Below are positions 6,361-52,448 of a stretch of 64,000 bases of DNA, one piece after another; the stretch's first letter is position 1; every line of letters starts with the position of its first letter. The stretch is from an uncultured Candidatus Saccharibacteria bacterium (GTDB taxonomy: Bacteria > Patescibacteriota > Minisyncoccia > Minisyncoccales > Staskawiczbacteraceae): the NCBI GenBank assembly GCA_964397155.1, contig CAYNHB010000001.1:2093-66092 (forward strand), in the 5' to 3' direction. The position numbers and the translations under genes were made by a program. The notes below the pieces were generated by a model that saw nothing but the letters and a program-made list of their open reading frames with translations, was not told the origin of the DNA and did not search any database.

Positions 6361-8018
6361 AAAAAGAATACAAATCAATTTTTCTTGTAAAACTTCCTCT
6401 GTGTTCTCATCCTGACTCCGAAGACAGCGATAGTTTTAGAACCAAAAACCCGTTTAGGCCGGACCCTTCTTTGGCTTTACCGGCATTGTGCGCTTTTATA
6501 GAAAGATACAAAACTTATGATTATAAAATAAAAGCCGTAGATTTAAACCTAGAGGCTTATACTAAACCCGGAACCCCGGTAGATCCGTCTGTTTTCCCCG
6601 GATTGTTAGAGAAAACTATTAAAAACAACGATTATGATGTTTTATCTATATCAATAATGTTTGTTTTTAATGTAAAGTGGGTTGATGATATTGTAAAATT
6701 ATCAAGAAAATTTCATCCTGAGGCAAAAATAATTATCGGTGGCGGATATCCTACGCTTTTTCCTGATAGATGTTTAGCAAAACACGATATTGATAACGCG
6801 ATAATAGGGGAAGGAGAAGCTACTTTTTTGCATATTATTAATAAATATAATAATCATCAAGATCCTGAGTTTGATAAAAAATTTCCTCATGGGTCATATG
6901 CGGCAAAAAATGAAAAAGGAGAAATTAATATTATCGAAGGAAAGAACAGCTTTATTGATCTAGCTAATTTGCCAGTTCCGGCTTGGGATTATATAAATAT
7001 AGAAAAATATTTTGAGAAGAGCGGGGAAAGCACACTGCCAATTGAAGGGAGCAGAGGATGCCCGTATCGTTGTTATTATTGTACCAGCTTCCTTTTTTGC
7101 GGGCCAAGGATTCGCTATAAGCCAGTTGATAATTTAATAAAAGAGATATTAGAGATAAAAAAAAGATACAAGGGTGTAAAAACTTTGCGTTTTGTAGATG
7201 ATAATCTTTCTTTTTCTAAAGACTGGATCAAGGATTTATTGAATAGAATAATAGATATGAAATTGCCGTTAAAATTAGAGATTCAAAACTTTTCAGTCAA
7301 GCATTTAGACGAAGAAATAGTAAGCTTATTAGTTAAAGCTAATATGAAGACATTTACTCTAGCTATTGAGTCAGGTTCTCCTGAAATACAAAAACGCATT
7401 AACAAGAACTTAAACCTTGATATGGTAAGAGGAGTAGTAAAAATGATAAAATCTCATGGTGTTCATCTCCATCTTTGCTGGATGGTAGGCTTTCCAAATG
7501 AAACATTGGATCAGATTAATGAAACTTTTGCTTTCGCCCGCGAATTAAAAGCTAACTCAAACCAATTTGTTACAGTTTTACCGTATCCTGGAACGCCGAT
7601 GTTTAATGAGGCAAAGAGAGACAATTTACTAGTTTTTTCCGAAGACAATTTAGATAAGTTTGATAATAGGAGATGTGACTATTTAAAATCAGATCAATGG
7701 AATTATGATCAGCTTCAGAAAATTATATATGATGCCAATATTGAAATGAATTTTCTTAAAAATCCTTCTCTTGAAACTGCTGAAGGGCGAGACCGCCTCT
7801 TAGAGTTTTTTCAGCCCCTTTTATTGGCGATACCAGAACACGTTGTTTTGCATTTAGTTGTTGGATATATTCACAAGAAGAAAGAGAATTATTCTGAATC
7901 TGAAAAGCATTACAATACAGCCAAAGAGCTTTTAAAAGACAAAAAGCTTTCTGAAACTTTTACTAAATATTTATCTTGGGATAACCTAGTTATACGAGAT
8001 TTTAACGCATGGCTATAA
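6357..8018 (+). CDS. B12-binding (class B) radical SAM enzyme
   Basis: The Cx3Cx2C motif GCPYRCYYC follows an N-terminal Rossmann-like cobalamin-binding region. 553 aa. Confidence 0.8.
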   Translation: MKKEYKSIFLVKLPLCSHPDSEDSDSFRTKNPFRPDPSLALPALCAFIERYKTYDYKIKAVDLNLEAYTKPGTPVDPSVFPGLLEKTIKNNDYDVLSISIMFVFNVKWVDDIVKLSRKFHPEAKIIIGGGYPTLFPDRCLAKHDIDNAIIGEGEATFLHIINKYNNHQDPEFDKKFPHGSYAAKNEKGEINIIEGKNSFIDLANLPVPAWDYINIEKYFEKSGESTLPIEGSRGCPYRCYYCTSFLFCGPRIRYKPVDNLIKEILEIKKRYKGVKTLRFVDDNLSFSKDWIKDLLNRIIDMKLPLKLEIQNFSVKHLDEEIVSLLVKANMKTFTLAIESGSPEIQKRINKNLNLDMVRGVVKMIKSHGVHLHLCWMVGFPNETLDQINETFAFARELKANSNQFVTVLPYPGTPMFNEAKRDNLLVFSEDNLDKFDNRRCDYLKSDQWNYDQLQKIIYDANIEMNFLKNPSLETAEGRDRLLEFFQPLLLAIPEHVVLHLVVGYIHKKKENYSESEKHYNTAKELLKDKKLSETFTKYLSWDNLVIRDFNAWL

Positions 8019-9952
8019 ACATATATTTTGCTGATTTAGTATACAAAACCAATAAGACAAACTTTTTTGTACCCTTGAACATAGGATATGTTGCAGCTTT
8101 TCTAAAAGAGAGGTTTAGAGAAGATGTTAACATTAAGCTTTTTAAATATCCGGATGTTCTTGAAAAAGCTCTAGTTGAAAACCCTCCTGATATTTTGGCT
8201 TTGAGCTATTACAACTGGAATGCCAGGTTAAGCCTTCTTTTTCTGGATATGGTTAAACGATTAAACTCGAAGACATTAACAGTTATGGGTGGGCCGAACA
8301 TCAGAACTGATCCAGACAGCCTTAAAAAATTTTTTGCCAGTCACACCAATCTTGATTATTATATAACCAACGACGGCCCGGAGCCTTTTTCCAAACTTAT
8401 TGGTGAAATTTTAGCAGGGCGCCCCAATCCCGATCCTTTGTCTTTGGCTGCTGAACCCTTTGATGCAAAAAGCATGGAAATAAACCACCCCAGCCCTTAT
8501 CTTACAGGATTGTTGGATGAGTTTTTGGCTGACCCTGATATAAACATTCTTTTGGAAACTAACAGGGGGTGTCCTTTTAGGTGCGCTTATTGCGCTTGGG
8601 GAGGGATGCTCCCTAAAATAAGAACAAGGCCCCTTGAGCAGGTTTTAAAAGAAATTGAGTATATAGCTGAAAAATCAGCAAGTCAGCCCACTTGGATATT
8701 CTGCGATAGTAATTTTGGGATTTTACCCAGAGATTTGGAAATTGCAAAAAAGGTGCGGGAAGTAATGGATAAAAAAGGGTACCCTAAAGATGTGATTATT
8801 TGGCAGTCAAAAAACACGCCGGCAAGAAACATAAAAATTGGCGAACTTTTAGGGAAAAATAACAGGGTATTAATTGCCATACAGTCAGCAGACCCCAAGG
8901 TTCTTGATATTATCGGCCGGGGAAACATAAAAATGAGCAGCATAAAAGAAGAAGTAGATTATTACCACAAAAAAAACCTTAAACTGGGAACGGATATTTT
9001 GGTAGGATTGCCCGGCGAGAGCAAAGACAGCCACTGCAATACTTTGGCAGCTGCTTTTGATATGGGATTTGATTATATTGCCCCACTTAATATTATGCTT
9101 TTACAGGGCACAAGGTATGAAAGCGATGAGTATCGCCAAAAATATGGAGTTAAAACCAAATACAGGCCGATTTTCGGCGCTTACGGCACATATGATAATA
9201 AAAAAGTATTTGAAATAGAAGAGTCGGTCAGGGCCACAAAAGATATGCCAGAACAAGAAATGAATAATCTTAAAATTCACCACTGGCTTATTTTCCTTAC
9301 TTGGAATTATGGTGTTTTCAAACCCATTTTGATGCTGGGCAAAAAACAAGGAATTAACCCTGAAACCGTTATAAAAGAGCTCTCTCAAACCCAAAACCCT
9401 GTGTTAAAAGATTTTTTTGACCGTTTTAAAAAACAATCTATGGAAGAATGGTTCAAAACTAAAGAAGAAATGATTTCTTTTTACGAACGGCCTGAAAATT
9501 TTAGCAATTTAGTCAAGGGTTTTGTAAAATTAAACCTTTTTTATGTGGCATGGGCTTTTCAGAACCCTGAAGTTCTCAATGCTTTAAAAAAAGAAATGGA
9601 AGCTATTGTTGTTGAAAAACTTAAAGAAAACAATGTTTTTGATCTGACTATTATAAAAGGAGTGGCTGAGCTTTCAGACCTTTTTGTCTGCAAAAATTTT
9701 TTGGAAGGCGAAAGGCAAATAACTGTAAAATATCCAGGCCAAGTTGTTTCAGTTGCGATTGATGATGCAAAATTCGCCGATAAAGATACTGTTGAATTAG
9801 AAATTTATCGGCCCCAGGAGTTTGTTGAACTTTGCAGGGCGCACCTGTGCCCGGACGGAAAGGAAAATTTATCTTTAGAAAATATCGCCAAGTTTTTAGA
9901 AATAGGAGGCGCCAGTACGCTTAAAAATAAGGTAATTGTAAAAAATCTTTAA
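8009..9952 (+). CDS. B12-binding radical SAM enzyme with ~250-aa C-terminal extension (tandem paralog 1)
   Basis: Cx3Cx2C motif NRGCPFRCAYCAWG. About 75% amino-acid identity to the next ORF. Confidence 0.8.
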   Translation: MAINIYFADLVYKTNKTNFFVPLNIGYVAAFLKERFREDVNIKLFKYPDVLEKALVENPPDILALSYYNWNARLSLLFLDMVKRLNSKTLTVMGGPNIRTDPDSLKKFFASHTNLDYYITNDGPEPFSKLIGEILAGRPNPDPLSLAAEPFDAKSMEINHPSPYLTGLLDEFLADPDINILLETNRGCPFRCAYCAWGGMLPKIRTRPLEQVLKEIEYIAEKSASQPTWIFCDSNFGILPRDLEIAKKVREVMDKKGYPKDVIIWQSKNTPARNIKIGELLGKNNRVLIAIQSADPKVLDIIGRGNIKMSSIKEEVDYYHKKNLKLGTDILVGLPGESKDSHCNTLAAAFDMGFDYIAPLNIMLLQGTRYESDEYRQKYGVKTKYRPIFGAYGTYDNKKVFEIEESVRATKDMPEQEMNNLKIHHWLIFLTWNYGVFKPILMLGKKQGINPETVIKELSQTQNPVLKDFFDRFKKQSMEEWFKTKEEMISFYERPENFSNLVKGFVKLNLFYVAWAFQNPEVLNALKKEMEAIVVEKLKENNVFDLTIIKGVAELSDLFVCKNFLEGERQITVKYPGQVVSVAIDDAKFADKDTVELEIYRPQEFVELCRAHLCPDGKENLSLENIAKFLEIGGASTLKNKVIVKNL

Positions 9953-9953
9953 C

Positions 9954-11921
9954 ATGGCTTTAAATATATATCTTGCTGACCTCGTATATAATACTATTAA
10001 AACAAATTATGTAGTGCCCTTAAATATAGGGTATGTTGCAGCTTTTCTAAAAGAAAAGTTTGGAGAAGATGTTAACATTAAGCTTTTTAAATACCCGGAT
10101 GTTCTTGAAAAAGCTCTAGTTGAAAACCCTCCTGATATTTTGGCTTTGAGCCATTACAGTTGGAATGAAAGGCTTGATTTCCTTTTTTTGGATATGGCCA
10201 AGCGCCTGAACCCCAAAATCTTAACAGCAATGGGCGGGCCGAACATCAGGACCGGCCCAGAAGACCTTAAAAAGTTTTTTACTAATCACCCAAACCTTGA
10301 TTACTGCGTAGTAAACGAAGGAGAGGAGTCTTTTGCCAGAATTGTAGATGAAATTCTGAAAGGATCTGCCAAACCGCATCCTATGGGTTCTGCTACTATT
10401 ATTAATGGAGAGTTTTTTTATACTCCCGAGCCCTTGGATGAAAGGGGTATGGAAATAAACCAGCCCAGCCCATATCTTACAGGATGGCTGGATGAATTTT
10501 TAGCTGACTCTAATATAATTCCCCTTTTAGAAACCAACAGAGGTTGTCCATTCCGTTGTGTTTATTGCGCTTGGGGAGCTATGCTTTCAAGAATGAGAAT
10601 AAGGCCTCTTGGCCAGGTTTTTAAAGAAATTGAATATATAGCTGAAAAATCAGCAGGTCAGCCTACTTGGATATTCTGCGACAGCAATTTCGGGATTTTT
10701 CCAAGAGATGTGGAAATTGCCAAAAAGGTGAGGGAAGTAATGGATAAAAAGGGATTTCCCATGAATGTAACTGTCTGGCAGTCAAAGAATACGCCAGAAA
10801 GAAACATAGAAATATCTGAACTTTTAGGAAAGAACAACAGAGGGTTAATTGCCATACAATCAGCAGACCCCAAGGTTCTTGAGAATATTGGCCGAGGAGC
10901 TATAAAAATGAGCAGTATAAAGCAACAAATTGATTATTATCATAAAAAGAACCTTGAAACAGTAACAGAAATGATGATAGGATTGCCTGGCGAGAGCGCC
11001 AAGAGCCAATATAATACTCTTATATCTGCTTTTGATATGGGATTTGATTTTATTGAACCATTTAACATCAGGCTTTTACAAGGCACAAGGTATGAAAGCG
11101 ATGAGTACCGCCAAAAATATGAAGTTAAAACTAAATACAGGCCTATTTTTGGAGCTTATGGCGTTTATGATAATAAAAAAGTATTTGAGATAGAAGAATC
11201 GGTCAGAGCCACAAAAGATATGTCAGAGAAAGAGTTAAACGACCTTAAAATTCACCACTGGCTTATTTTTTTCACTTGGAATACCGGTATATCCAAGCCC
11301 ATTTTAATGTTGGGCAAAAAACAAGGGATTAATCCTGAAATTGTTATAGACGAGCTTTCTCGAACTCAAAACCCTACGCTAAAAAATCTTTTTGACCGCA
11401 TAAAAGAAGAATCTATGAAAGAATGGTTTGAAACCAAAGAAGAAATGATTTCTTTTTATGAAAAGCCCGAGAATTTTGACAAGCTGGTTAATAATTTTAT
11501 GAAATTGAACTTTTTTTACATCGCGCTAGTGTATCAGAATCCAGAGATTCTTAAAGCTTTGCAAAAAGAGATGGAAATTATTGTAGCTGAAAAGCTTAAG
11601 CTGAAAAATATTTTTAGCCAAGTTGCTATGAATAGCGTAGTTGAGCTTTCAAACCTTTTAATCTGCAAAAATCTTTTAGAAGATGAGAAGCGGATAACCA
11701 TGAAATATCCAGGCGAGATTGCTTCAATTGTAACTAATGACTTAAAACTTGCCGGCAAAGACGTTGTTGAATTAGAGATTTACCGCCCTAAGGAATTTGT
11801 TTCTTTTTGCCAATTTCATTTAAACCCTGGTGGCAAGGAAAATTTATCTTTGAGAAACATTACCAAATTTTTAGAAGTAGGAGGCCTAAACATGCTTAAA
11901 AACAGGATAAGAGTGTTATGA
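9954..11921 (+). CDS. B12-binding radical SAM enzyme with C-terminal extension (tandem paralog 2)
   Basis: Cx3Cx2C motif NRGCPFRCVYCAWG. Begins 2 nt after the stop of paralog 1. Confidence 0.8.
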   Translation: MALNIYLADLVYNTIKTNYVVPLNIGYVAAFLKEKFGEDVNIKLFKYPDVLEKALVENPPDILALSHYSWNERLDFLFLDMAKRLNPKILTAMGGPNIRTGPEDLKKFFTNHPNLDYCVVNEGEESFARIVDEILKGSAKPHPMGSATIINGEFFYTPEPLDERGMEINQPSPYLTGWLDEFLADSNIIPLLETNRGCPFRCVYCAWGAMLSRMRIRPLGQVFKEIEYIAEKSAGQPTWIFCDSNFGIFPRDVEIAKKVREVMDKKGFPMNVTVWQSKNTPERNIEISELLGKNNRGLIAIQSADPKVLENIGRGAIKMSSIKQQIDYYHKKNLETVTEMMIGLPGESAKSQYNTLISAFDMGFDFIEPFNIRLLQGTRYESDEYRQKYEVKTKYRPIFGAYGVYDNKKVFEIEESVRATKDMSEKELNDLKIHHWLIFFTWNTGISKPILMLGKKQGINPEIVIDELSRTQNPTLKNLFDRIKEESMKEWFETKEEMISFYEKPENFDKLVNNFMKLNFFYIALVYQNPEILKALQKEMEIIVAEKLKLKNIFSQVAMNSVVELSNLLICKNLLEDEKRITMKYPGEIASIVTNDLKLAGKDVVELEIYRPKEFVSFCQFHLNPGGKENLSLRNITKFLEVGGLNMLKNRIRVL

Positions 11922-15504: not shown

Positions 15505-15536
15505 AAACCGCTCACACGCCCGTGTGAGCGGTTTGG
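15505..15536 (+). terminator. Rho-independent terminator of the B12-capture operon
   Basis: ccgctcacac-gcccg-tgtgagcgg followed by tttgg, 30 nt after the stop of 14911..15474. A second small hairpin, cccctt-cttga-ggggtt, lies at 15585-15602. Confidence 0.75.
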
Positions 15537-15620
15537 CTTTGCAAAGCTTGGCTTTGCAATGTTTTGATACCCCCTGACCCCCCTTGACACCCCTTCTTGA
15601 GGGGTTTAATATGGAAAAAT

Positions 15621-15869: not shown

Positions 15870-15916
15870 TTTTTTACGTATTAATATAAGTTAAAATATT
15901 ATTAACATTTCTTAAT

Positions 15917-17236
15917 ATGAAGACAAAAAGCACAGACGAAGTAAAAGAGTTATATAAATATTGGAGCAAAAGAATCTTTTGGAGCGTTTGGATAACTTAT
16001 GCCTGCTTTTATTTAGTAAGAGTGAATATGTCTATTGCCCTTCCTGGAATTATGTAGGAATTTGGGTTGTCAAAAACAGCAATGGGCGGTGTTTTGTCTG
16101 CCATGTTTTTTGCTTATGCTGTTGGGCAGTTTATCAATGGCCAGCTTGGCGACAAATTTGGAGGAAGAAAGCTGATAAGCATTGGTTTGATAGTTTCTGC
16201 AATTATTAACCTTGTGTTTGGTTTTACCCATGGAATTATTTCTGCAATGATGCTTTTGTGGGGTTTGAATGGATATTTCCAGAGCATGGGATGGAGCCCG
16301 AGCGTTAAAACAGTCGCAAACTGGTTTTCGCCAAGCAAAAGATCAAAATTCAGCAGCTTGCTAGGGACCTCATATCAAATAGGAAATGCTATATCATGGG
16401 CCCTTTCCGGGTTTATTGTGGGGCTGTTCGGATGGAGGTTTGCATTTATAATTCCTGGGGCAATATGTCTTTTTGTCGGCCTTCACTGGGCAATTCGCGG
16501 CAGAAACGCGCCCGAAGAAGTTGGACTGCCGACTGTGGAGGAAGAAGAAAAGGGAAAACTTGATGAAAAAGCAACAAGCATTGAAGTTAAAATTGAAGTC
16601 AAAACAGACCATCACATAGGATTTAAAGAAACTTTGAAAATGTGCCTTTTCAACAGAGGCGTTTGGATAGTTGCTCTTGGATTATTTTTTTTAAATGTTG
16701 TAAGATATGGATTTTTGGACTGGGCGCCAACTTATATGTTTGAAGTTCAGGGAGCAGCTATATCACTCGCAGCTTACAAGGCAATGGTTATGCCTATCGC
16801 GGGCTCGTTAGGAGCTTTATTTGCCGGCTGGGCATCTTATAAATATTTTAGAAACAGGAAAGCTCCGGTTTCAGCTGTGATGCTGTTTCTGCTTGGAATT
16901 TCTGCATGGCTTTATATGCAAATACCCGCAGGAGACTGGATGTTAAGCTTAATTTGTTTAATGTTTATCGGGTTCATGACATACGGGCCCCACGTAATGA
17001 TGGTAACATCAATGCCAATGGATTTTGGAACCAGAAAGGCGGCCGCTTCTGCAGCTGGATTTATAGATGGATGGGGTTATGTTGGAGCAGCATTAACTGG
17101 AGTTGCAAGCGGCTGGTTAATTGATGCGTTCAGCTGGGATGCTGCGTTTTATTTCTGGATATTATGCGCGTTTATAGCAGGAATTCTGATGTTGACTCTT
17201 TGGAAATACAAACCTAAAAAAGGAGAATATTGCTAA
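15917..17236 (+). pseudogene. GlpT/UhpC-family MFS organophosphate:phosphate antiporter interrupted by an in-frame TAG at 16055-16057
   Basis: ATG 15917 encodes MKTKSTDEVKELYKYWSKRIFWSVWITYACFYLVRVNMSIALPGIM, a GlpT-like TM1. An in-frame TAG follows. The same frame then continues EFGLSKTAMGGVLSAMFFAYAVGQFINGQLGDKFGGRK (MFS TM2 and the G-x-L-x-D-K-x-G-R-K loop) to TAA at 17236. Either a nonsense mutation, a sequencing error or read-through. Confidence 0.55.
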
Positions 17237-17264
17237 AAAAGAAAATTATTAAAAGATTTTTACT

Positions 17265-17732
17265 ATGAAAATAGTTTATGCGTATGTCGTAGCTGACTTG
17301 CTTCATGTGGGGCATGTTTTAGCATTAGAAAACGCTAAAAAATTAGCCGGGCCGGACAGCAAATTAATTGTTGGCGTTTTGACAGATGAAGCGACAATGC
17401 AAAAAAAATCAAAGCCAATTTTGTCTTTCAGCGAAAGAAGAAAATTAATTGAGTCCCTAAAGTGCGTTGATTGTGTCGTTGCCCAAAAACAATATAGCCC
17501 CAACCATAACATCCAAATTATAAAACCGGACATACTTATGGAAAGCGATAGCCACACAGATGAAGATTTAAAGGAAACCCAAAGGATTGCAGATGCTATA
17601 GGATGTAAGATTCAGATGATGCCTTATTTTTCCGATCAAAGTTCAACCAAAATTAAGAATAGTATTTCTGTAAATTGGGAGGATCCAAATCAGATTAAGA
17701 AAACTGAAAATGACGGACTATGGCATGAGTAA
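17265..17732 (+). CDS. tagD: Glycerol-3-phosphate cytidylyltransferase
   Basis: YVVADLLHVGHVLALENAKKLAG...LIVGVLTDEA matches the TagD/GCT HxGH motif and N-terminal fold. Confidence 0.8.
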   Translation: MKIVYAYVVADLLHVGHVLALENAKKLAGPDSKLIVGVLTDEATMQKKSKPILSFSERRKLIESLKCVDCVVAQKQYSPNHNIQIIKPDILMESDSHTDEDLKETQRIADAIGCKIQMMPYFSDQSSTKIKNSISVNWEDPNQIKKTENDGLWHE

Positions 17733-17775
17733 AGTAAGTTGCTTTTTAAAAAGAGAATGCCGTTAAATTAATAGG

Positions 17776-19026
17776 TTGATGAAGATTTGCAATATCAATT
17801 TAAGTAAAATTATAAAGCGAGCTTGCGGATTGCCTCTTTATTTGATTTATTGTCTTTCCTGTTTGGCGCCGAGGAGTAAAAGGATTTGGGTCTTTGGAAC
17901 AGAAAGGAATTTTACTGATAATTTTAAATATCTGTTTCTATATATTGCTAACAATAAAAAAGATAAAGTAAAAGCAGTATGGATTTCCCAAAGCAAAAAC
18001 CTTGCAAAACAGCTAAAAAAAGAAGATTATAATGCCTATTCGAATACATCCCTTAAAGGAATATATTATACCTTAAGAGCTAAATATTTTTTTGTTAATG
18101 AAAATTCTTCTGATATAAATTTTTGGCTTTCTGGAGGAACGAAAAAAATTGCCCTTTACCATGCCATGCCTTTTAAAAAAGTAGGGTATGACACAAAGAA
18201 AGGAAAACACAGCCATTTTTTACATCTCAAAGGGATTAAAAAAAATATATTTAGATTGCTCGCCCCATGGACGTTTGAAAAAAAAGATTTTATTATCGCC
18301 ACCTCGCCTATCTTTCAGAAAATAATGGCTTCATCTTTTTGCACTGACGAAAACAAAGTTATTATTACCGGCTCTCCGAGAAATGATATTTTTTTCAATG
18401 AAATTAAAAACTCTGAACTGGGTAATGATAAATCTATATTCTGGCAAATAAAGAATTTTAAAACTAAAGGCAAAAAGATTATATTCTATTTACCTACCTG
18501 GCGGGACACGGGAGGAGATCCATTAGAAGAAGCGAACATTAATTTTGATGCACTTAAAAAATTTTTAAATTTGAATAACGCTGTTTTTATAGCTAAGTTC
18601 CATATACGCGCAGATATAAACGAAGAAAACTGGCAAAAACTGAATTCTGAAGAATTTTTAATTTTGCCCAGCAATACTGATATTTACCAAATTCTTCCTA
18701 AGACCGATATTTTGATTACCGACTATTCTTCAGTATTTTTTGATTTTCTTTTGATAAACAGGCCAGTAATATTTTTCCCTTATGACTTTCAGAAATATAT
18801 TAGTAAAGACAGAGAATTATATTTTGATTATGATGAATTTACCCCCGGTCCGAAGGTTTATAACTTTAACGAGCTTTTAAGCCAGCTGGATCGCCTTTTA
18901 AAAGGAGAAGATGGCTATGAACAGCAAAGAGAAAAGATAAGAAGCCAATGTTTCAGCCATATTGACGGTAATTCATCTGAAAGAATTTTTAAGACAATTT
19001 ATAATGAAGCACAAATTAAAAAATAA
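17776..19026 (+). CDS. CDP-glycerol glycerophosphotransferase (TagB/TagF family)
   Basis: C-terminal motifs IFYLPTWRD and DILITDYSSVFFDFLLINRPVIFFPYD are typical of Glyphos_transf enzymes. Confidence 0.75.
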   Translation: MMKICNINLSKIIKRACGLPLYLIYCLSCLAPRSKRIWVFGTERNFTDNFKYLFLYIANNKKDKVKAVWISQSKNLAKQLKKEDYNAYSNTSLKGIYYTLRAKYFFVNENSSDINFWLSGGTKKIALYHAMPFKKVGYDTKKGKHSHFLHLKGIKKNIFRLLAPWTFEKKDFIIATSPIFQKIMASSFCTDENKVIITGSPRNDIFFNEIKNSELGNDKSIFWQIKNFKTKGKKIIFYLPTWRDTGGDPLEEANINFDALKKFLNLNNAVFIAKFHIRADINEENWQKLNSEEFLILPSNTDIYQILPKTDILITDYSSVFFDFLLINRPVIFFPYDFQKYISKDRELYFDYDEFTPGPKVYNFNELLSQLDRLLKGEDGYEQQREKIRSQCFSHIDGNSSERIFKTIYNEAQIKK

Positions 19027-19574: not shown

Positions 19575-20573
19575 ATGATTTTTGATAACAAAAAAATATT
19601 AATAACCGGCGGGGCTGGATCAGTGGGTCAGGCCCTAATAAAAGAGATATTAAAATACAGCGGAAATACCATCCGTGTTTTTGACATATCTGAAAATGAG
19701 ATATCCAAATTAAGGCATAATTTTATGGGAGAAAAAAGACTGCGTTATTTGATTGGCGATGTAAGGGACTTAAAGAGATTAGAATTAGCGATGGAAGGGA
19801 TTGATATTGTTATCCATTTAGCGGCGATGAAGCACGTATATACCTGCGAGTATAATCCTTTTGAAGCAATTAAAACAAATATAGACGGCCTGCAAAATGT
19901 TATAGATTGCGCCAGAAATGAGAATGTTGAGAAGGTGATTTTTACCAGCACTGATAAAGCAGCGCGCCCCTTAAGTGTGATGGGCATGACTAAGCTTATA
20001 GGCGAAAAACTTATTTCTTCTGCAAACTATTATAAGGGAAGTAGTACGACATCATTTGCTTCAGTGCGTTTTGGAAATGTGGCGGGGTCAAACGGATCTG
20101 TTGTGCCGATTTTTAAAAAACAAATTCTCAATAGCGAACCCTTGAGGATTACCGATATGAAAATGACCCGTTTTGTTATTACTATGCAAGAAGCGGTAAG
20201 TTTAATTTGCCAAGCCGTTCAGCTTATGCAGGGAGGAGAGGTATTTGTGTGGAAAATGAGAACATTAAAAATAACTGATTTGGCAGATTCAATGATAGGC
20301 AGATACGCAGGGGGCAGGCAGGTAGAAGTGGTTATCACCGGAAAAGTAGAGGGCGAAAAAATACATGAAGACATAATGTCATCAGAAGAGCTTTCCCGAT
20401 CGGTAGAGTTGGATAATCTTTATATTATTTTTCCAATGATTGATTACTCAAATATTAAAAGCAGATACCAGAACGCAAAGCCGGTTGAAAATCCGATTAT
20501 CGCTTCAAATATGGGGACTCACATGTCTTCAGACGAGATAAATAAATTATTAGGAGAAGAAAAAGATTTATGA
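19575..20573 (+). CDS. pseB: UDP-N-acetylglucosamine 4,6-dehydratase (inverting), PseB/FlaA1/CapD-type
   Basis: ILITGGAGSVG, YLIGDVRD, HLAAMKHV, STDKAARPLSVMGMTKLIGEKL and GNVAGSNGSVVPIFKKQI closely follow PseB throughout its length. Confidence 0.85.
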   Translation: MIFDNKKILITGGAGSVGQALIKEILKYSGNTIRVFDISENEISKLRHNFMGEKRLRYLIGDVRDLKRLELAMEGIDIVIHLAAMKHVYTCEYNPFEAIKTNIDGLQNVIDCARNENVEKVIFTSTDKAARPLSVMGMTKLIGEKLISSANYYKGSSTTSFASVRFGNVAGSNGSVVPIFKKQILNSEPLRITDMKMTRFVITMQEAVSLICQAVQLMQGGEVFVWKMRTLKITDLADSMIGRYAGGRQVEVVITGKVEGEKIHEDIMSSEELSRSVELDNLYIIFPMIDYSNIKSRYQNAKPVENPIIASNMGTHMSSDEINKLLGEEKDL

Positions 20574-21991
20574 TAAAAGTTTTATTAATTGATCCGCCAT
20601 TCCCGGAAAGGCCCTGGGATATAAATTGGCTGACGCAGTTTCCGCCCAAGGGCTTGATGTACATTGCCGCCTACCTGCGCCAGGCCGGAGTTGATGTGGA
20701 TGTTTTAGATATAAAGCAACTGCAGTTTGAAAGGCCCTCGCTTCTTTCGCGTTCAATAAGCGAGATACAGCAATTTGTAAAATATTATGTAAAGGAGCAT
20801 AATCCGGAAATTATTGGAATAACATCAACAACAATATCATATATTCCGGCGACAAAAATAGCCAAAGCAGTAAAGGAAGCGGCTCCAAACGCAAAAGTAG
20901 TTATTGGGGGGGTGCACGTTACATTTACAGCTCACGAAACTTTAACGGAGTGCCCATGGATAGATGTTGTTGTAAGGGGAGAGGGAGAGCGCCCGATACT
21001 TGAACTTGCGCAAGGCAAGACGCTTGCGCAAGTTCAAGGCATTAGTTTTAGAGAAAATGGAGAGATAATCGATAACCCAATGGGCCCATTATTAAATCCT
21101 GAGGAAATTCCTGTGCCAGCATATGATATGCTTGATATGAAAAAATACGCTTATGTTGTTTTAATGTGCACTCGGGGCTGTCCTCATAATTGCACCTTTT
21201 GTGAATTGCCTCAGGTGCATGGGAAAGGGATCCGCTGCCGTTCTTCTGAGAGAGTTTCTGAAGAGTTAGAGCTTGCTCTTTCTTTAAATCCAAATCTTGA
21301 AATTAGGTATGAAGATGAATTTATGGGCTTGTTTCCAGAACGCACAAAACAGATTTTAGATTTAGTGAAGAACAAAAGAGTTGGCCAGTTCCGGGCTGCT
21401 ACCAGACCTGATGGGCTTACAGATGAAATACTCGTTAAATTAAAGGAAGCGGGTTGCACCAATCTTTACATTGGCATGGAATCGGGCTCAGATGAGGTTT
21501 TAAAATTTAATAAGCGAGCTGTTACAGTGTCAAAAATTTTAGAGATTGCTGAAATGTTTAAGAAAAACGAAATGCTTTTTCACTCCGGGTTTATTTTAGG
21601 GCTTCCGGGAGAGAATAAACAAACACTTGAACAAACATTAGATATTGCCCTAAAGTGTTGCGATGCCACATTTGAAACAGTAAAGAAAAATTTTAAAGAG
21701 TTTCTTAGAATAATGCCGTTCAAATTAATTGTGGAAAATTCAAGAGCGGAGTTTAACTTATTGGCTCCAAATCCAGGCACAGAAATATTCCAGAACCCAG
21801 GAAAATTCAGGTATAAAATATTTCATAAGAATTGGGAGCTTTATGACTGCAATACTTCGGTTGGGGAACCCTATGATGTGAGTGCTTTGGAAATTGAAGA
21901 ATTTAAGAAAAAAGCTTTTAAGGCTGTCCAAGATAAAATGAAAGCTTACGATTTGCCAGTAAATTGGTGGGATTATGGATATAAAGGATAA
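20570..21991 (+). CDS. B12-binding (class B) radical SAM enzyme
   Basis: N-terminal B12-binding-like domain followed by the Cx3Cx2C motif RGCPHNCTFC. Confidence 0.8.
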   Translation: MIKVLLIDPPFPERPWDINWLTQFPPKGLMYIAAYLRQAGVDVDVLDIKQLQFERPSLLSRSISEIQQFVKYYVKEHNPEIIGITSTTISYIPATKIAKAVKEAAPNAKVVIGGVHVTFTAHETLTECPWIDVVVRGEGERPILELAQGKTLAQVQGISFRENGEIIDNPMGPLLNPEEIPVPAYDMLDMKKYAYVVLMCTRGCPHNCTFCELPQVHGKGIRCRSSERVSEELELALSLNPNLEIRYEDEFMGLFPERTKQILDLVKNKRVGQFRAATRPDGLTDEILVKLKEAGCTNLYIGMESGSDEVLKFNKRAVTVSKILEIAEMFKKNEMLFHSGFILGLPGENKQTLEQTLDIALKCCDATFETVKKNFKEFLRIMPFKLIVENSRAEFNLLAPNPGTEIFQNPGKFRYKIFHKNWELYDCNTSVGEPYDVSALEIEEFKKKAFKAVQDKMKAYDLPVNWWDYGYKG

Positions 21992-22919
21992 AAAAATTTT
22001 AATAACCGGCGGGGCCGGGTTTATGGGTCGGTGGACTGCAAAAAATTTGGTTGAAAAAGGCCATAAAGTTTGGATTTTAGATAATCTTTCAAATGGTTTT
22101 GAAAAAAATATTGAAGAATTTAGAAGCAAACTGCAGGGCTTTGTAATAGGAGACGTAAAAGATAAGGAAGTTCTTTTAAAATTATTTGAAAATAATTTCG
22201 ATATATGTGTTCATTTTGCCGCAGCAATAGATGTGCAAGAAAGCATTGATGACCCTGAAAAAAATTTCAACGATAATTGCCTTGGCACTTTTAACATTTT
22301 AGAACAATGCAGAAAGCACAACACAAAACTAGTTTTTGCCAGCTCTGCCTTAGTTTATAAAACATCGGAGCCTGGCTGTTTGATAAAAGAGCAAGACCCT
22401 GTTTTTTCCTCTTGCCCGTATGTTGCAAACAAGCTTTACGGAGAAAATCTTGCCATAGCTTATTTAAAAACTTACAATTTGCCTGTTGTTATTTTAAGGC
22501 CTTTCAGCATTTATGGGCCTTTTCAGAGAAGCGATTCTGAAGGAGGAGTGATGAGTATATTTATTAATAAAAAGCTTAAAGGTGATCCGCTTTTGGTTTT
22601 TGGAACAGGAGAACAGGAAAGAGATTTCTTTTATATTGAAGATTGCGCTGAATTTATTGCCAGAGCTTGTTTTGAAGACAAAGCCATAGGAGAAATTTTT
22701 AACGCCGGTTATGGGAAGGGAATAAAGATAAAGGATTTAGCTAAAAAAATAGCCGGCAACGAAGCAGAAATAAAATTTATTGAGCACCACCATCCTCATG
22801 CTGAAATAATGAATATGGCAGCTGACTGGCAAAAAGCAAAAACAATTTTGAATTGGGAACCGACAATAACTTTAGAACAAGGAATAATAAAAACAACTCA
22901 ATGGCTAAAAAACCAATAA
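21975..22919 (+). CDS. NAD-dependent sugar epimerase/dehydratase (extended SDR)
   Basis: ILITGGAGFMGRW Rossmann motif and a YxxxK region (YVANKLYGE). Confidence 0.75.
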   Translation: MDIKDKKILITGGAGFMGRWTAKNLVEKGHKVWILDNLSNGFEKNIEEFRSKLQGFVIGDVKDKEVLLKLFENNFDICVHFAAAIDVQESIDDPEKNFNDNCLGTFNILEQCRKHNTKLVFASSALVYKTSEPGCLIKEQDPVFSSCPYVANKLYGENLAIAYLKTYNLPVVILRPFSIYGPFQRSDSEGGVMSIFINKKLKGDPLLVFGTGEQERDFFYIEDCAEFIARACFEDKAIGEIFNAGYGKGIKIKDLAKKIAGNEAEIKFIEHHHPHAEIMNMAADWQKAKTILNWEPTITLEQGIIKTTQWLKNQ

Positions 22920-24022
22920 TTCCATACGGGCATCAATGGATAGATGAAGCCGACGTTAAAGAAGTTGTTAAAGCTTTGAGCTCTGATTGGCTTACTCAGG
23001 GCCCGAAAGTTGAAGAATTTGAAAAAGCACTTGCAAAATATTGCGGGGCAAAGTATGCCGTGGCAGTTTCTTCGGGCACCACAGCCTTATACGCAGCTTA
23101 TAATGTAGCTGGAATAAAGCTGAGAGATGAAATAATAACAACGCCTTTGACTTTTGCAGCTACTTCTAATATGGCGGCAATCTTGGGAGCAAAGCCGGTT
23201 TTTGTTGATATTGAGAGCGAGACTTTGAATATTGACCCGGAAAAAATAGACCAGAAAATTACAAGCAAAACAAAAGCCATAGTAACAGTAGATTTTGCCG
23301 GGCATCCTGCAGATTACGATAAAATTTTAAAAGTTGCCAAAAAGCATAATTTGCTGGTTATAGAAGATGCCTGCCACGCTTTGGGAGCTGTATATAAGAA
23401 CAAAAGAGTCGGAAGCTTAACTGATATGGCGATTTTAAGTTTCCACCCTGTAAAAAATATTACTACTGGAGAAGGCGGAGCAATTTTAACCAATAATAAA
23501 AATTTTTATGAAAAGCTTAAAATTTTTAGGCATCACGGAACAGTTAAAAAATCAGAAAAAGGTAAATGGTATTATAAAATTGAAAACCCGGGCTTTAACT
23601 GCAGAATTACTGATTTTCAATGCGCTTTGGGCACGAGTCAGCTAAAAAAAATAGGTAAGTTTTTAAAAAGAAGAAAAAAAATTGTTTCAGAATATAATAA
23701 GGCATTTAAAAATATTAAAAAAATTATACTGCCTGTTGAAAAAAATTATGCGAAGTCAGCCTGGCACATATATCCTGTTCAAATAAACGGATTGAACAGA
23801 AGAAAGGTTTTTGAGACATTGCAAAAAAAAGGAATTGGCTGCCAGGTCCATTATATGCCTCTGCACTTGCATCCGTTTTACAAAAAAAAGTTTGGGTATA
23901 AAAAAGGAGATTTTCCAAGAGCTGAGAAGTATTATGAGAGAGCAATCACCTTGCCCTTATATCCTAAAATGACCAACAAAGACGTCCAATATGTAATTAA
24001 GTCAGTTAAAAAAATAATATGA
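22901..24022 (+). CDS. DegT/DnrJ/EryC1/StrS-family PLP-dependent sugar aminotransferase (PseC/ArnB-like)
   Basis: The family N-terminus (IPYGHQWIDEADVKEVVKALSSDWLTQGPKVEEFE), SSGTTAL, and the FHPVKNITTGEGG lysine motif. Start taken at MAKKPIIPYG, overlapping the upstream gene. Confidence 0.85.
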   Translation: MAKKPIIPYGHQWIDEADVKEVVKALSSDWLTQGPKVEEFEKALAKYCGAKYAVAVSSGTTALYAAYNVAGIKLRDEIITTPLTFAATSNMAAILGAKPVFVDIESETLNIDPEKIDQKITSKTKAIVTVDFAGHPADYDKILKVAKKHNLLVIEDACHALGAVYKNKRVGSLTDMAILSFHPVKNITTGEGGAILTNNKNFYEKLKIFRHHGTVKKSEKGKWYYKIENPGFNCRITDFQCALGTSQLKKIGKFLKRRKKIVSEYNKAFKNIKKIILPVEKNYAKSAWHIYPVQINGLNRRKVFETLQKKGIGCQVHYMPLHLHPFYKKKFGYKKGDFPRAEKYYERAITLPLYPKMTNKDVQYVIKSVKKII

Positions 24023-24759
24023 GAACTGAAAAAGAACAAAATCACTCTAAAGAATTAAACCAACACTTAAATAGCCTGATAGCTCAAGAGAATAAACCTG
24101 TAATAGATATTATTAATGATTTTCCCAAATATGCTTCACGACAGACCCTTTCTCGCTTTTTGGCGCAGCATGAGTTATTTAAGATGATTTTAGATGTTAA
24201 GGGCTCTATTGTGGAATGCGGGGTTTTCAGGGGGGCAGGACTAATGACTTGGGCAAAATTATCTGCAATATATGAACCAGTAAATTATCACCGTGAAATC
24301 ATTGGGTTTGATACTTTTGCTGGTTTTCCTGATGTTGATGCTAAAGATGAAGCAGAAAATAAAAATGTTGACGCAAAAAAGGGTGGTATATCTGCAGATT
24401 CATATGATGAATTAAAAAAAGCAATAGATTTGTATGATTCAAACCGGTTTCTTTCCCACATAGAGAAAGTTAAACTAATCAAGGGAGACTTTTCAAAAAC
24501 TGGTCCGGAATTTATTGAGAAAAATCAACACCTTATAATATCTTTATTGTATTTAGACTTTGATATTTATAAACCTACGAAAGAAGCTTTAAAATTATTT
24601 TTACCAAGAATGCCGCGTGGGTCGGTTTTAGTTCTTGACCAAATAAATAATCCCAGATGGCCTGGGGAAACAGCTGCTTTGCTAGAAGAATTGGATCTGA
24701 ATAAGTATGAAATTAAAAATTTTTACTATGAACCAGATATATCTTATGTTGTTATATAA
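24019..24759 (+). CDS. TylF/MycF-family (macrocin-type) sugar O-methyltransferase
   Basis: IVECGVFRGAGLMTWA and the downstream DFD/LDQ segments fit the TylF (Methyltransf_24-like) family. Confidence 0.6.
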   Translation: MRTEKEQNHSKELNQHLNSLIAQENKPVIDIINDFPKYASRQTLSRFLAQHELFKMILDVKGSIVECGVFRGAGLMTWAKLSAIYEPVNYHREIIGFDTFAGFPDVDAKDEAENKNVDAKKGGISADSYDELKKAIDLYDSNRFLSHIEKVKLIKGDFSKTGPEFIEKNQHLIISLLYLDFDIYKPTKEALKLFLPRMPRGSVLVLDQINNPRWPGETAALLEELDLNKYEIKNFYYEPDISYVVI

Positions 24760-24767
24760 AAAATTTT

Positions 24768-25136
24768 ATGTTTAAAGTAGGAATTGATTTGATAGAAGTC
24801 AAAAGGTTTAAAAACATATCCCAAAAAAAGAAATTTTTGGAAAATGTTTTTACAGAAAAAGAATTAAAGCATTGCAAAAAAAAACCGGCAGAATCTTTGG
24901 CTGGCCGGTTCGCTGCCAAAGAAGCGACAAGAAAAACAATTGAAGATAAAATTGCTTTTAATGAAATAGAAATAACAAACGATAAAAATGGCGCGCCAGA
25001 AGTTAAGTTTTTGAACAAAAGAATAGAAAAAAAATATAAATCAATAATTAGCATTTCGCACACTCGATCGATGGCCCAGGCAGTGTGCATTACTTTCAAA
25101 AATGAGCGTCAAAAAATGCATAGTATTAGACCTTGA
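24768..25136 (+). CDS. acpS: Holo-[acyl-carrier-protein] synthase (4'-phosphopantetheinyl transferase)
   Basis: GIDLIEVKRF N-terminus and LAGRFAAKEATRK, with the small AcpS size. Confidence 0.75.
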   Translation: MFKVGIDLIEVKRFKNISQKKKFLENVFTEKELKHCKKKPAESLAGRFAAKEATRKTIEDKIAFNEIEITNDKNGAPEVKFLNKRIEKKYKSIISISHTRSMAQAVCITFKNERQKMHSIRP

Positions 25137-26148
25137 TAACACCCTTTGGGGCGGTATTGTGGGAGAGGACGGCTTTGAGGGAATTGAGTTATCTCTTGAT
25201 AAAGGGGCAGGTTTTATTGCTTTTCAGCAGGCTTTGTTGGATTTATATAACAAAGGAATAATTTTAGCTATTAATAGCCGAAATAATCATGAAGATGCCA
25301 TAAAAGTTATTAAAACTCACCCAAATATGATTTTGAGAGAAAACAATTTTGCCGCTGCGAGGATTAATTGGAATGATAAGGCAGACAATTTGAAAGAATT
25401 GGCAAAAGAAATAAATATCGGGCTTGATTCAATGGTATTTTTGGATGATGACCCGACAAATAGGGCGCTGGTCAAAGCAATTTTGCCAGAGGTTGAAACT
25501 CCAGAAATGCCCTCTGATCCTTCAGATTACGTAAAGTTTTTAATTCAGCTTCCATATTTTGATTTAGCTGCTCTGACAAATGAAGACAAAATGAGGGGGA
25601 ATTTTTATGTCACCGAAAGATTGCGCCGCGAGTCTGAAAAAATTTTTAATAACAGAGAGGATTTTTTAAAAAGCTTAAAAATGGAGATGCAGATATTCGA
25701 GGATGATCCGTCTCAGCTGGCGCGCTTAGCCCAGCTTACCAACAAAACCAATCAGTTCAATTTTAACAAGCGCGAGCTGTTAGAAAAAGATATTGCAGAT
25801 TTTATAAATAGCAAAGACTATAGGGTATTTTACGGCAGGTTAATAGATTGTTTTGGGGATTACGGAATAATTGGTTTTGCTGTTGTAAAAAAGGGTGAAG
25901 AATCCTGGCAAATTGAGCAATTTTTAATGAGTTGCAGGGCTATTGGGCGGGGGGCTGAGGAGGCATTTTTAGCAGCCATAGCAAAAACCGCAAAAAGCAG
26001 CCAAGCCAAAAGCTTATCAATAACATTTGTCCAAACCCTCAAAAACGAACCGGCAAAAGATTTTTTAGAAAAATACTTTAAAGATAATCCGGTGCTAATT
26101 GATAATATTGTTAATTCGCCGTCTTGGATAAAAAATGGAAAAATTTAA
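25102..26148 (+). CDS. FkbH-like HAD-superfamily (subfamily IIIC) enzyme
   Basis: CIVLDLDNTLWGGIVGEDG HAD motif I, a second motif VFLDDDP, and a ~350-aa length matching FkbH-like domains that load a glyceryl unit onto ACP. Confidence 0.6.
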   Translation: MSVKKCIVLDLDNTLWGGIVGEDGFEGIELSLDKGAGFIAFQQALLDLYNKGIILAINSRNNHEDAIKVIKTHPNMILRENNFAAARINWNDKADNLKELAKEINIGLDSMVFLDDDPTNRALVKAILPEVETPEMPSDPSDYVKFLIQLPYFDLAALTNEDKMRGNFYVTERLRRESEKIFNNREDFLKSLKMEMQIFEDDPSQLARLAQLTNKTNQFNFNKRELLEKDIADFINSKDYRVFYGRLIDCFGDYGIIGFAVVKKGEESWQIEQFLMSCRAIGRGAEEAFLAAIAKTAKSSQAKSLSITFVQTLKNEPAKDFLEKYFKDNPVLIDNIVNSPSWIKNGKI

Positions 26149-26365
26149 TAAAATAATTTTTGATATCTTTAAATTAACGCCGGCTAAGATTAAAGATTCC
26201 CTGACGTTAGAAGAAATTCCCGATTGGGATTCTATGAATTATTTACTGCTTATTTCTGAATTAGAAAAGCAATTTAAAGTATCTTTTAACATGGACCAGG
26301 TACTAAAGGCTAAATCTTTGGGCGATGTTAAAAATATGCTTCGTTCAAAAGGCATAGAATTATGA
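26135..26365 (+). CDS. Acyl carrier protein
   Basis: 76 aa with the EIPDWDSMNYLLLISELEKQF helix II and a DS(M) phosphopantetheine-attachment serine. Confidence 0.7.
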   Translation: MEKFNKIIFDIFKLTPAKIKDSLTLEEIPDWDSMNYLLLISELEKQFKVSFNMDQVLKAKSLGDVKNMLRSKGIEL

Positions 26366-27162
26366 AAAAAGAAAAAATTATATTTAAATATAAGGACAAG
26401 GGATTCGTTTTTTCGGACATAGTCAAAGCCATTAAAAAATCTGGGATTAAAAAAGGAGGCGTTTTAATGCTTCATGCTGATTTAGCCCGTTTTGGAAAAT
26501 TAGGAGAAATTTCTGATAAAAAAGAGTTTGCCAATGTTTTTATAGAAGCGTTTAGAGAGGCGTTGGGAGAAGAGGGAACATTGGTTGTGCCGACTTTCAC
26601 ATATTCTTTTTGCAATAATGAGGTCTATGACCCAGATAATACACCATCAAGAGTAGGATTATTTACTGAAGAATTACGCAAGAGAAAAGACGCTTTCAGA
26701 AGTATTCATCCTATATTTTCAGTTGCTGCTATCGGGAAAAAAGCTAAAGAACTAACCCAAAATATCAGCAAAAACAGTTTTGGTGAAGGTTCTGTGTATG
26801 ACAAGCTTTTAAAAATAAAAAATAGCAAATATGTGATATTTGGAGTTGATTATTTTAGTTGTACTCAGGTTCATTATATTGAAGAAAAACTGAGAGCGCC
26901 TTATAGATACGTAAAAAAATTTAAAGGGAAAATAAAAGAAAAAGGCAAAATATATAATGACGAATATGAATATTATGTCAGGCCCTTGGATGAAAGTGTA
27001 GTTCCTGATTTTGATAAAATTGAAAACCATCTTTTAAATGCTGGTTTTCTCAAAAAAACAGCCCTCGGTAATGATTTTATAAGCGTTACTAAGATTAGTG
27101 ATATCTGCAAGGAGGGAACAAAAATGTTTAAAAAAGACCCAAATTTTTTCTTAAAAATATGA
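26362..27162 (+). CDS. AAC(3)-family (Antibiotic_NAT fold) N-acyltransferase
   Basis: GGVLMLHADLARFG and TLVVPTFTYSF match aminoglycoside 3-N-acetyltransferase-family motifs. Here it is embedded in a sugar pathway next to an ACP. Confidence 0.65.
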   Translation: MKKEKIIFKYKDKGFVFSDIVKAIKKSGIKKGGVLMLHADLARFGKLGEISDKKEFANVFIEAFREALGEEGTLVVPTFTYSFCNNEVYDPDNTPSRVGLFTEELRKRKDAFRSIHPIFSVAAIGKKAKELTQNISKNSFGEGSVYDKLLKIKNSKYVIFGVDYFSCTQVHYIEEKLRAPYRYVKKFKGKIKEKGKIYNDEYEYYVRPLDESVVPDFDKIENHLLNAGFLKKTALGNDFISVTKISDICKEGTKMFKKDPNFFLKI

Positions 27163-28409
27163 TGCAATTAATTAAAGACCTCTGGTTTAAAAGAAGGGAT
27201 ATTATTTCTGACGGATTTGATGAATCATTGGAATATATTTCAAAAATAATCCCTCTTAAAATTCATGAAATCCCATCGGGAACAAAATGCTGGACTTGGA
27301 CGGTGCCTGAAAAATGGAGCGTGAAAGAGGCATATATAAATGATTTGGACGGCAACAGAATCCTTGATTTAAAAGATCACCCCTTGCATGTTGTTTCTTA
27401 TTCTTTGCCGATTGATAAAGTTGTAAGCAGAGAAGAGCTATTGGAGCACTTGCATACAAGCAAAGAAAGACCTGAAGCCATTCCCTTTGAATTTAAGTAT
27501 TATGAAAAAGATTGGGGTTTTTGTATTCAAGATAATAAATTAAAAGAATTTACAAAAGATAAATACAAAGTTTTTATTGATTCTAAATTTGAAAAAGGAG
27601 ACTTAAAAGTAGGTGAGCACACAATAAAAGGTAAAACTGATAAAACTATTGCTTTGGTTTCTCATCTTTGCCATCCCGCTCAAGTGAATGATGATTTGAC
27701 TGGCGTTGCAGTATCAGTTGATATTGCTAAAGCAATGGGCAAAAAAGACAACTACTATACATATAAATTTTTGTTTGTTCCAGAAACAATCGGTTCTCTT
27801 GCCTATCTAAGCCAAAATGAAGACGTAATTCCTAAAATAGAATACGGCATTTTTCTTGAAATGTTGGGCAATGACAATATTCATGCCTTGCAGTTATCGC
27901 GACAAGGGGATACGCGATTAGACAGAATTGCAAGATATCTAATGAAAAGAAATCTTAAAAATTTTAAAGAAGGACCTTTTAGAACAATTGTGGGAAATGA
28001 CGAAATGGTATTTAACGGACCCGGTGTTGATGTCCCAATGATTTCAATCAGCAGATATCCTTATCCTGAATATCATACATCAGACGATAATCTTGATATT
28101 GTGTCAGAACAAAGATTGGAAGAATCCAAAAATTTAATTTTGGAAATATTAAACATTATTGATAAAGATTTTACGCCGAAAAGGCAATTTAAAGGGCCGA
28201 TATTTTTGTCAGGATATGATTTATGGGTGGATTGGAGGGAAAATTTAGAATTAAACAGAAATTTTGAAAAAATTATGCTTAATCTTGAAGGCGATAAAAC
28301 CGTATTTGATATAGCAGATGAATTAAATATGAAATTTGAAGATGTCTTGGGCTTCGTGAATAAATTAGAAAAAGCCAAATTGGTCTTAAATATGAAAAAT
28401 AATGAATAA
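27159..28409 (+). CDS. DUF4910/aminopeptidase-like domain protein with C-terminal winged helix
   Basis: 416 aa. The C-terminal FDIADELNMKFEDVLGFVNKLEKAKLVL looks like a wHTH. The architecture resembles DUF2172-DUF4910-HTH proteins often found beside AAC(3)-like genes in glycan loci. The assignment is tentative. Confidence 0.35.
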   Translation: MMQLIKDLWFKRRDIISDGFDESLEYISKIIPLKIHEIPSGTKCWTWTVPEKWSVKEAYINDLDGNRILDLKDHPLHVVSYSLPIDKVVSREELLEHLHTSKERPEAIPFEFKYYEKDWGFCIQDNKLKEFTKDKYKVFIDSKFEKGDLKVGEHTIKGKTDKTIALVSHLCHPAQVNDDLTGVAVSVDIAKAMGKKDNYYTYKFLFVPETIGSLAYLSQNEDVIPKIEYGIFLEMLGNDNIHALQLSRQGDTRLDRIARYLMKRNLKNFKEGPFRTIVGNDEMVFNGPGVDVPMISISRYPYPEYHTSDDNLDIVSEQRLEESKNLILEILNIIDKDFTPKRQFKGPIFLSGYDLWVDWRENLELNRNFEKIMLNLEGDKTVFDIADELNMKFEDVLGFVNKLEKAKLVLNMKNNE

Positions 28410-43025: not shown

Positions 43026-43028
43026 TTT

Positions 43029-49209: not shown

Positions 49210-49210
49210 A

Positions 49211-50254: not shown

Positions 50255-50263
50255 ATAAAAGAT

Positions 50264-50638: not shown

Positions 50639-50641
50639 AAT

Positions 50642-51586: not shown

Positions 51587-51590
51587 AATT

Positions 51591-51622
51591 AAAAAAACCC
51601 ATCAGCTTTCGCGATGGGTTTG
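51591..51622. terminator. Bidirectional rho-independent terminator
   Basis: aaaaaaa-cccatc-agctttcgc-gatggg-ttt between the convergent hldE kinase (+) and the GC-rich Nudix gene (-). Confidence 0.7.
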
Positions 51623-51645
51623 GCAAATCATGCACACTTGGACTT

Positions 51646-52383: not shown

Positions 52384-52448
52384 AGGACAGTATCTTTAAT
52401 ATTAAACTATTATTATAACTTTGTCAATATTTAAAAGTCAAAAGATTT

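Follow-up and report, generated by a model that had tools for sequence, protein, structure and literature searches.

A single in-frame amber codon (TAG) interrupts a transporter gene of the major facilitator superfamily (MFS) in an uncultured Candidatus Saccharibacteria bacterium, within a 64,000-nucleotide (nt) stretch of contig CAYNHB010000001.1 (positions 2,093 to 66,092; the whole stretch is referred to here as the window). The gene encodes a GlpT/UhpC-like protein and is followed by genes for a small cytidylyltransferase and a TagB/TagF-type transferase. The amber codon is probably a real and recent nonsense mutation that has become fixed in a near-clonal Patescibacteria population, where it most probably inactivates or cripples the importer.

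The amber codon and the interrupted transporter

The transporter frame runs on the forward strand from ATG 15917 to the TAA at 17234-17236, and its sole internal stop is the TAG at 16055-16057 (codon 47); neither a frameshift nor a second stop was found in this frame, which confirms the earlier note on this DNA in describing the TAG as the only lesion. With profile matches computed on the joined frame and the stop read as X, the Pfam family MFS_1 (PF07690) matched with 188 bits (E=2.2e-55; residues 24-393 against profile positions 1-345 of 347), and HMMER aligned residues 8-428 with Escherichia coli GlpT (PDB 1pw4; E=3e-59). As the MFS_1 match starts at profile position 1 and the GlpT alignment at residue 8, the 46-codon piece upstream of the stop is the true N-terminus including the first transmembrane helix (TM1); the doubt raised earlier over whether this segment is homologous to MFS TM1 is removed by the two alignments, both of which cover it. 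The best NCBIfam matches are OPA-family models (the PgtP subfamily, UhpC and GlpT), all of them far below their curated cut-offs: 239-240 bits against 632.55 and 748 for the GlpT equivalogs (TIGR00712 and NF008433) and 272 bits against 408 for the subfamily model. Judged by these matches, by the 12-helix fold and by its paired arginines, the protein is an MFS transporter of the OPA family, and it is GlpT/UhpC-like, not a GlpT orthologue.

Regarding the position of the cut, Arg35 in TM1 aligns with GlpT Arg45 and Arg263 with GlpT Arg269, both being invariant in 30 homologues. In GlpT, Arg45 and Arg269 are the paired arginines of TM1 and TM7 that bind the substrate (PMC5940252; PMC12926222), and the R45K replacement is described as strongly reducing transport (Huang et al., as cited in PMC12926222). 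The TM1 fragment holds Arg35, and a product without TM1 would therefore lose half of the substrate-binding pair. In an AlphaFold2 model of an 85%-identical orthologue of equal length (P0003; predicted local distance difference test score 86, predicted template modelling score 0.85), which consists nearly entirely of long helices, TM1 is formed by helices 2-31 and 37-49, followed by a loop (50-52) and TM2 (53-81). Codon 47 lies where TM1 ends on the periplasmic side, with the TM1-TM2 loop beginning three residues further on. Translation from ATG 15917 would be expected to end there after 46 residues, no full-length 12-helix transporter would be made, and the helix with one of the two substrate-binding arginines would be cut from the rest. 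We infer that uptake of an organophosphate, probably glycerol-3-phosphate, feeding the cytidylyltransferase and the TagF-like transferase would be lost or strongly reduced. The downstream part is represented exactly by a 384-aa protein starting at ATG 16082 (P0002), recorded from NCBI, JGI, ENA and Logan, and caution is needed in annotation, as this stump appears on its own in public gene calls.

The TAG was recovered in five further contigs (L001-L005), which match the window with 100% identity along 2-7 kb and come from ENA (MEGAHIT-style contigs), JGI and Logan assemblies, representing three assembly pipelines. Three of these contigs (L003, L004 and L005) all end at window position 17332. 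Strain variation was considered for the shared ends and rejected, since L003 (public contig ERZ27248897 k141_73496) finishes in Illumina adapter sequence (AGATCGGAA, L003 2626-2634), and the three contigs are probably assemblies of one library or read set. Counting them as one read set, at least three independent read sets show the TAG. A scan of metagenome and genome collections for the pattern ATGTCTATTGCNNTTCCNGGAATTATGNNNGAATTTGG found no sense allele in the population of the window: in the metagenomes, the window's population was hit once (L009, with TAG), along with four contigs of diverged relatives with CAT or GCT, and in the genomes a single hit came up, a relative carrying CAT. A sequencing or assembly artefact hiding a real sense codon would fit a lesion affecting one codon only, but it is highly improbable, as the TAG and its flanks are identical in six contigs from different pipelines and at least three read sets, and the orthologous CAT is two base changes away from TAG. 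Sequencing error, one of the causes considered in the earlier note, is thus effectively excluded.

Similarly, comparison with orthologous loci, which had been proposed as a check, revealed a sense codon at this position. The closest homologues (P0001, from a Patescibacteria metagenome-assembled genome, P0003, P0004 and P0005) share 77-85% aa identity and are all full-length (431-439 aa). At the loci that carry the orthologues with 84-85% aa identity (L006, L007 and L014), codon 47 reads CAT (His), and in the more distant relatives L010-L012 it reads GCT (Ala). The residue is variable in the family (H/K/E/G/A/Q/D) and the next one is a nearly invariant Glu. On this comparison, TAG is the derived state, two substitutions from CAT, and the mutational route plausibly led through CAG or TAT, either of which would be easy because the position is variable. 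The sense codon in orthologues and the reproducible TAG together support a nonsense mutation, the option under which the gene had been described as an incipient pseudogene. L006 shares the order HTH_17–MFS–CTP_transf_like–Glyphos_transf with the window, as do L007 and L014 in part, and the comparison indicates a real module whose ancestral form had an intact transporter. Within the family, the 120 best homologues contained no further split; P0094 and P0118, which are short and were considered as such, were rejected as mis-called starts with open upstream frames.

Selection, restart and read-through

Several observations weigh against a loss of function. Relaxed constraint was not detected by pairwise Nei-Gojobori ratios of non-synonymous to synonymous substitution rates (dN/dS) or by lineage-specific codon counts, and the ratios resemble those of intact genes: dN/dS is 0.09-0.10 between the window gene and four orthologues and 0.09-0.13 among the intact orthologues, and the codon changes found in the window lineage only comprise 54 synonymous and 24 non-synonymous ones (ratio 0.44, compared with 0.30-0.57 in three intact lineages), the amino-acid replacements being mostly conservative. 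The transporter is also the most conserved gene of the module, with 84% aa identity to L006, compared with 77% for the TagF-like protein, 77% for the HTH_17 protein and 52% for the cytidylyltransferase, and the genes 3' of it are intact. Furthermore, the stop is close to a helix-loop boundary, a kind of site at which MFS proteins can be cut and still assemble, and the in-frame codons TTG 16067 and ATG 16082 follow it at 9 and 24 nt. The absent decay suits a very recent event and a retained function equally well: on the sequence comparison, the gene may still be selected, or else the stop arose very recently compared with a branch of dS≈0.8. As the contigs of the population do not differ from one another, the age of the allele is not measurable.

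Function could be retained if the transporter were made in two pieces, with termination at the TAG, restart at TTG 16067 or ATG 16082 and assembly of the TM1 peptide with TM2-TM12, a reading that has a precedent in engineered transporters but appears rather unlikely. The fragments of a LacY supplied in two pieces are described as associating functionally in vivo (Bibi & Kaback, 1990; Zen et al., 1994; both cited in PMC6605686). In the window, the stop falls on a variable residue, dN/dS is unchanged in both pieces with no added lesions, and the TAG with the following G makes an AGGA 7 nt upstream of TTG 16067. However, this AGGA is an automatic by-product of TAG and the conserved GAA, and TTG makes up 22% of Leu codons, hence its presence at 16067 is unremarkable; restart at TTG would lose the nearly invariant E48 and restart at ATG also S52-K53-T54. 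A Shine-Dalgarno-like motif (permissive 4-mer) was detected at just 9 of 63 gene starts, the upstream regions being A/T-rich, and this organism seems to start translation largely without such motifs. The AGGA before the TTG is of doubtful value because the genome hardly uses Shine-Dalgarno sequences. Moreover, no second, diverged split was found among the relatives, all of which are intact, and one clonal allele provides no evolutionary evidence of maintenance; naturally split membrane proteins would be recognised by expression of both fragments and by a split kept across diverged lineages, and here the split occurs in one clonal allele only. It is therefore unlikely that this is a natural MFS split in which a free TM1 peptide with the essential arginine and a TM2-TM12 body reform an active organophosphate importer. 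To our knowledge, natural fission of an MFS transporter is hardly documented, and a two-piece transporter, if true, would parallel in nature what the LacY fragment experiments achieved by engineering and would show gene fission at its first step.

Alternatively, the stop might be leaky or suppressed, either by near-cognate read-through or by an amber suppressor tRNA encoded elsewhere, giving some full-length and partly functional transporter. The perfectly continuous frame without decay, the freely variable residue, at which any inserted amino acid should be tolerated, and the rarity of TAG as a stop are consistent with such an arrangement, which is nevertheless quite improbable. Under the standard code, the 64 open reading frames (ORFs) used, with the pieces of the split transporter forming two of them, tile the window unbroken; 41 end in TAA, 18 in TGA and 5 in TAG, including the transporter amber. 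When the latter is excluded, TAG terminates 4 of 63 genes and is the rarest stop. Read-through at these four other TAG stops would add 4, 375, 4 and 19 codons, but the genes that follow begin as complete independent domains (e.g., a GT2 glycosyltransferase from profile position 1 and an epimerase from position 2), and efficient suppression would fuse genes across the TAG at 43023. No other split genes and no tRNA genes were found in the window, no Rfam element occurs near the transporter TAG, no pyrrolysine-type context is evident there, and the 100 nt around and after it fold no better than shuffled sequences (z=-0.8). In bacteria, basal read-through normally falls far short of what would keep a transporter supplied. 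Amber read-through, a further option of the earlier note, is thus left without support, with four genes ending in TAG and neither a tRNA in the window nor significant RNA structure at the site.

Genome-wide recoding of TAG was also considered and is rejected by the stop-codon census and by the intact domains after the four other TAG stops; as judged from the window, the organism uses the standard code with TAG as a normal stop. Regarding the TAG at 43023, it ends a methyltransferase gene (42246-44153 region) and shares the frame of the GT2 gene that follows, a single codon separating the two, which makes it the only other site where TAG read-through would join two proteins. This pair looks like ordinary tight operon packing, both domains being complete.

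A recent nonsense mutation with loss of importer function is the reading that we favour. If it is a simple loss, this population of the candidate phyla radiation (CPR) has just lost a dedicated organophosphate importer and kept the cytidylyltransferase and TagF-like genes, which would be a small point on how reduced, host-dependent bacteria supply the decoration of surface glycans. The finding would carry greater weight if the two pieces work together or if a toxic environmental phosphonate selected the loss. By analogy, fixation of the TAG allele by selection is conceivable, because loss of a GlpT/UhpT-type importer can be advantageous.

Neighbouring genes and the surface-glycan island

The features of the transporter module are listed in Table 1.

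Table 1. Position and properties of the transporter gene parts and of the neighbouring module genes in the window.
Feature	Position	Strand	Remarks
HTH_17 (excisionase/MerR-type) small DNA-binding protein, 82 aa	15621..15869	+	ATG 15621; ends TAG
Promoter-like site TTTACG-18-TATTAT, 5' of transporter gene	15873..15902	+	consensus scan, 9/12 matches; weak
N-terminal transporter fragment	15917..16057	+	46 codons + TAG; cytoplasmic N-tail and TM1, including Arg35
In-frame amber codon TAG	16055..16057	+	orthologous codon CAT (L006, L007, L014) or GCT (L010-L012)
C-terminal transporter fragment, TM2-TM12	16067..17236	+	possible restarts TTG 16067 (389 aa) or ATG 16082 (384 aa)
Small cytidylyltransferase-like nucleotidyltransferase ('TagD-like')	17265..17732	+	PF01467 (CTP_transf_like), E=1.4e-13; HVGH at residues 14-17
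TagB/TagF-type CDP-glycerol glycerophosphotransferase family protein	17776..19026	+	PF04464 (Glyphos_transf); probable start ATG 17779

Upstream of the transporter, the HTH_17 gene was identified by PF12728 (E=7.7e-11) and TIGR01764 (30.4 bits against a cut-off of 28.8); its mechanical ORF begins at TTG 15597, and L001 has a gene call for it. It also lies 5' of the MFS gene in L006 and L014. It had been described as an excisionase-type gene, and the family assignment (HTH_17, PF12728) holds; a local regulator is more likely than a mobile-element excisionase, since no integrase was found nearby and the gene is syntenic in relatives. A near-consensus promoter (TTGACA-17-TAATAT, 15584-15612) lies just 5' of this gene, and further upstream a strong hairpin (15505-15534) is followed by two copies of GGCTTTGCAA (15535-15544 and 15550-15559), each with the palindrome TTGCAA. 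The hairpin, repeats and promoter in 15505-15612 could be the operator and promoter for the regulator of the module.

Downstream, the TagB/TagF-like glycerophosphotransferase of the earlier description is borne out by a near full-length PF04464 match (257.2 bits, profile positions 12-366 of 367), and L001 again has a gene call. This family assignment is firm on the profile evidence, and at the level of equivalogs the protein missed the TarF, TarL and TarB models (135 bits for TarF against a cut-off of 550). The cytidylyltransferase is a small cytidylyltransferase that is TagD-like at the family level: the best PDB match is the Fom1 cytidylyltransferase domain (5x3d, 53.9 bits), followed by TagD (1coz, 46.9 bits), and the score against TIGR01518 (TagD) is 56.6 bits, far under the cut-off of 165.4. 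The HxGH motif is kept and the RTxGISTT-type motif is degenerate (…SDQSSTKIK…).

The proposed route from imported glycerol-3-phosphate through CDP-glycerol to glycerophosphate transfer therefore stands in part, with the TagF-like enzyme firm and the transporter OPA-like, and with TagD and GlpT identifiable at the family level only. Glycerol-3-phosphate is the most economical guess for the transported substrate, and it is inferred because the transporter scores below every NCBIfam cut-off. The neighbourhoods on which this guess is based comprise a cytidylyltransferase with Glyphos_transf in the window, L006 and L007, and CDP-OH_P_transf in L015 and L016. In other lineages, members of the MFS family adjoin cytidylyltransferases and CDP-alcohol phosphatidyltransferases or, in L008, a fusion of cytidylyltransferase and phosphoenolpyruvate (PEP) mutase, and the neighbourhoods fit import of a small organophosphate for CDP-activation. 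The acceptor is probably a glycan and not classical wall teichoic acid, as the module sits in a surface-glycan island with nonulosonic-acid and heptose-type genes.

Regarding phosphonates, the 77%-identical relative on L008 (973-6314) has its MFS gene flanked by the fusion of cytidylyltransferase and PEP mutase, by two more small cytidylyltransferases and by a B12 radical SAM gene. This Fom1/Fom3-like arrangement suggests that the lineage uses phosphonate for decoration. The idea, prompted by this PEP mutase and by the Fom1-like PDB match, that a phosphonate takes the place of glycerol-phosphate in the window is unsupported, no PEP mutase being present in its 64 kb.

The window as a whole is one large surface-glycan island with a Wzy_C/TPR protein, glycosyltransferases, a flippase, and nonulosonic-acid and heptose-type genes. 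The nonulosonic-acid (pseudaminic/legionaminic-type) set at 19575-30196 comprises a Polysacc_synt_2 dehydratase, a DegT aminotransferase, a NeuB synthase and a CTP_transf_3 cytidylyltransferase, and this region also holds an N-acetyltransferase-like gene and a DUF4910/M28 gene. The heptose-type set at 49163-53480, which is apart from the cytidylyltransferase at 17265, comprises a GT9 heptosyltransferase, a cupin, a PfkB kinase and a CTP_transf_like–HAD fusion. The island further contains five genes for B12-binding radical SAM proteins (6357-11921, 20570-21991 and 30956-32305), of which three lie in tandem; this unusual density suggests C-methylation or other radical tailoring of sugars. An Rfam DUF3800-V RNA was detected at 564-661 on the reverse strand (53.3 bits against a gathering score of 37.4), adjoining a DUF3800 protein gene at 44-550 on the forward strand.

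Comparison with known systems

Like GlpT and other members of the OPA family (UhpT, UhpC and PgtP; TC 2.A.1.4), the window transporter has the 12-helix MFS fold and keeps both substrate-binding arginines, but its gene is broken by a stop. It differs from GlpT in an invariant Tyr153 of its clade, which aligns with GlpT His165, and in belonging to a clade of its own, whose members from Patescibacteria, DPANN archaea and others share 61-68% identity. Within this clade, the Patescibacteria proteins were compared with entries labelled Nanoarchaeota, Woesearchaeota, Margulisbacteria and Chloroflexota, and such conservation across lineages suggests horizontal spread among small-celled symbionts.

As in the TagD and TagB/TagF (TarF) genes, a small HxGH cytidylyltransferase adjoins a PF04464 enzyme. 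Unlike TagD and TagF, both window proteins fall under the equivalog cut-offs, with the cytidylyltransferase slightly closer to the Fom1 domain, and unlike classical wall teichoic acid genes, the module lies inside a large surface-glycan island. Regarding the two pieces of the transporter, engineered split LacY is likewise an MFS transporter cut near a helix-loop boundary with both parts encoded contiguously; split LacY, however, consists of laboratory constructs with engineered starts, whereas at the window locus expression of the second fragment and its assembly with the first would be hypothetical.

A parallel is offered by nonsense mutations in E. coli glpT and uhpT, which accompany fosfomycin resistance (PMC12926222) and which, like the window allele, truncate an OPA-family importer by a premature stop while the rest of the genome is intact. 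The E. coli alleles are selectable since the importer admits a toxic phosphonate (PMC12926222). In contrast to the fosfomycin isolates, the window organism is an uncultivated CPR bacterium in which no evidence of a selective agent was seen, and its gene belongs with a teichoic-acid-like module instead of being linked to catabolism. The interrupted transporter is an ordinary finding, a phenomenon of a well-known kind.

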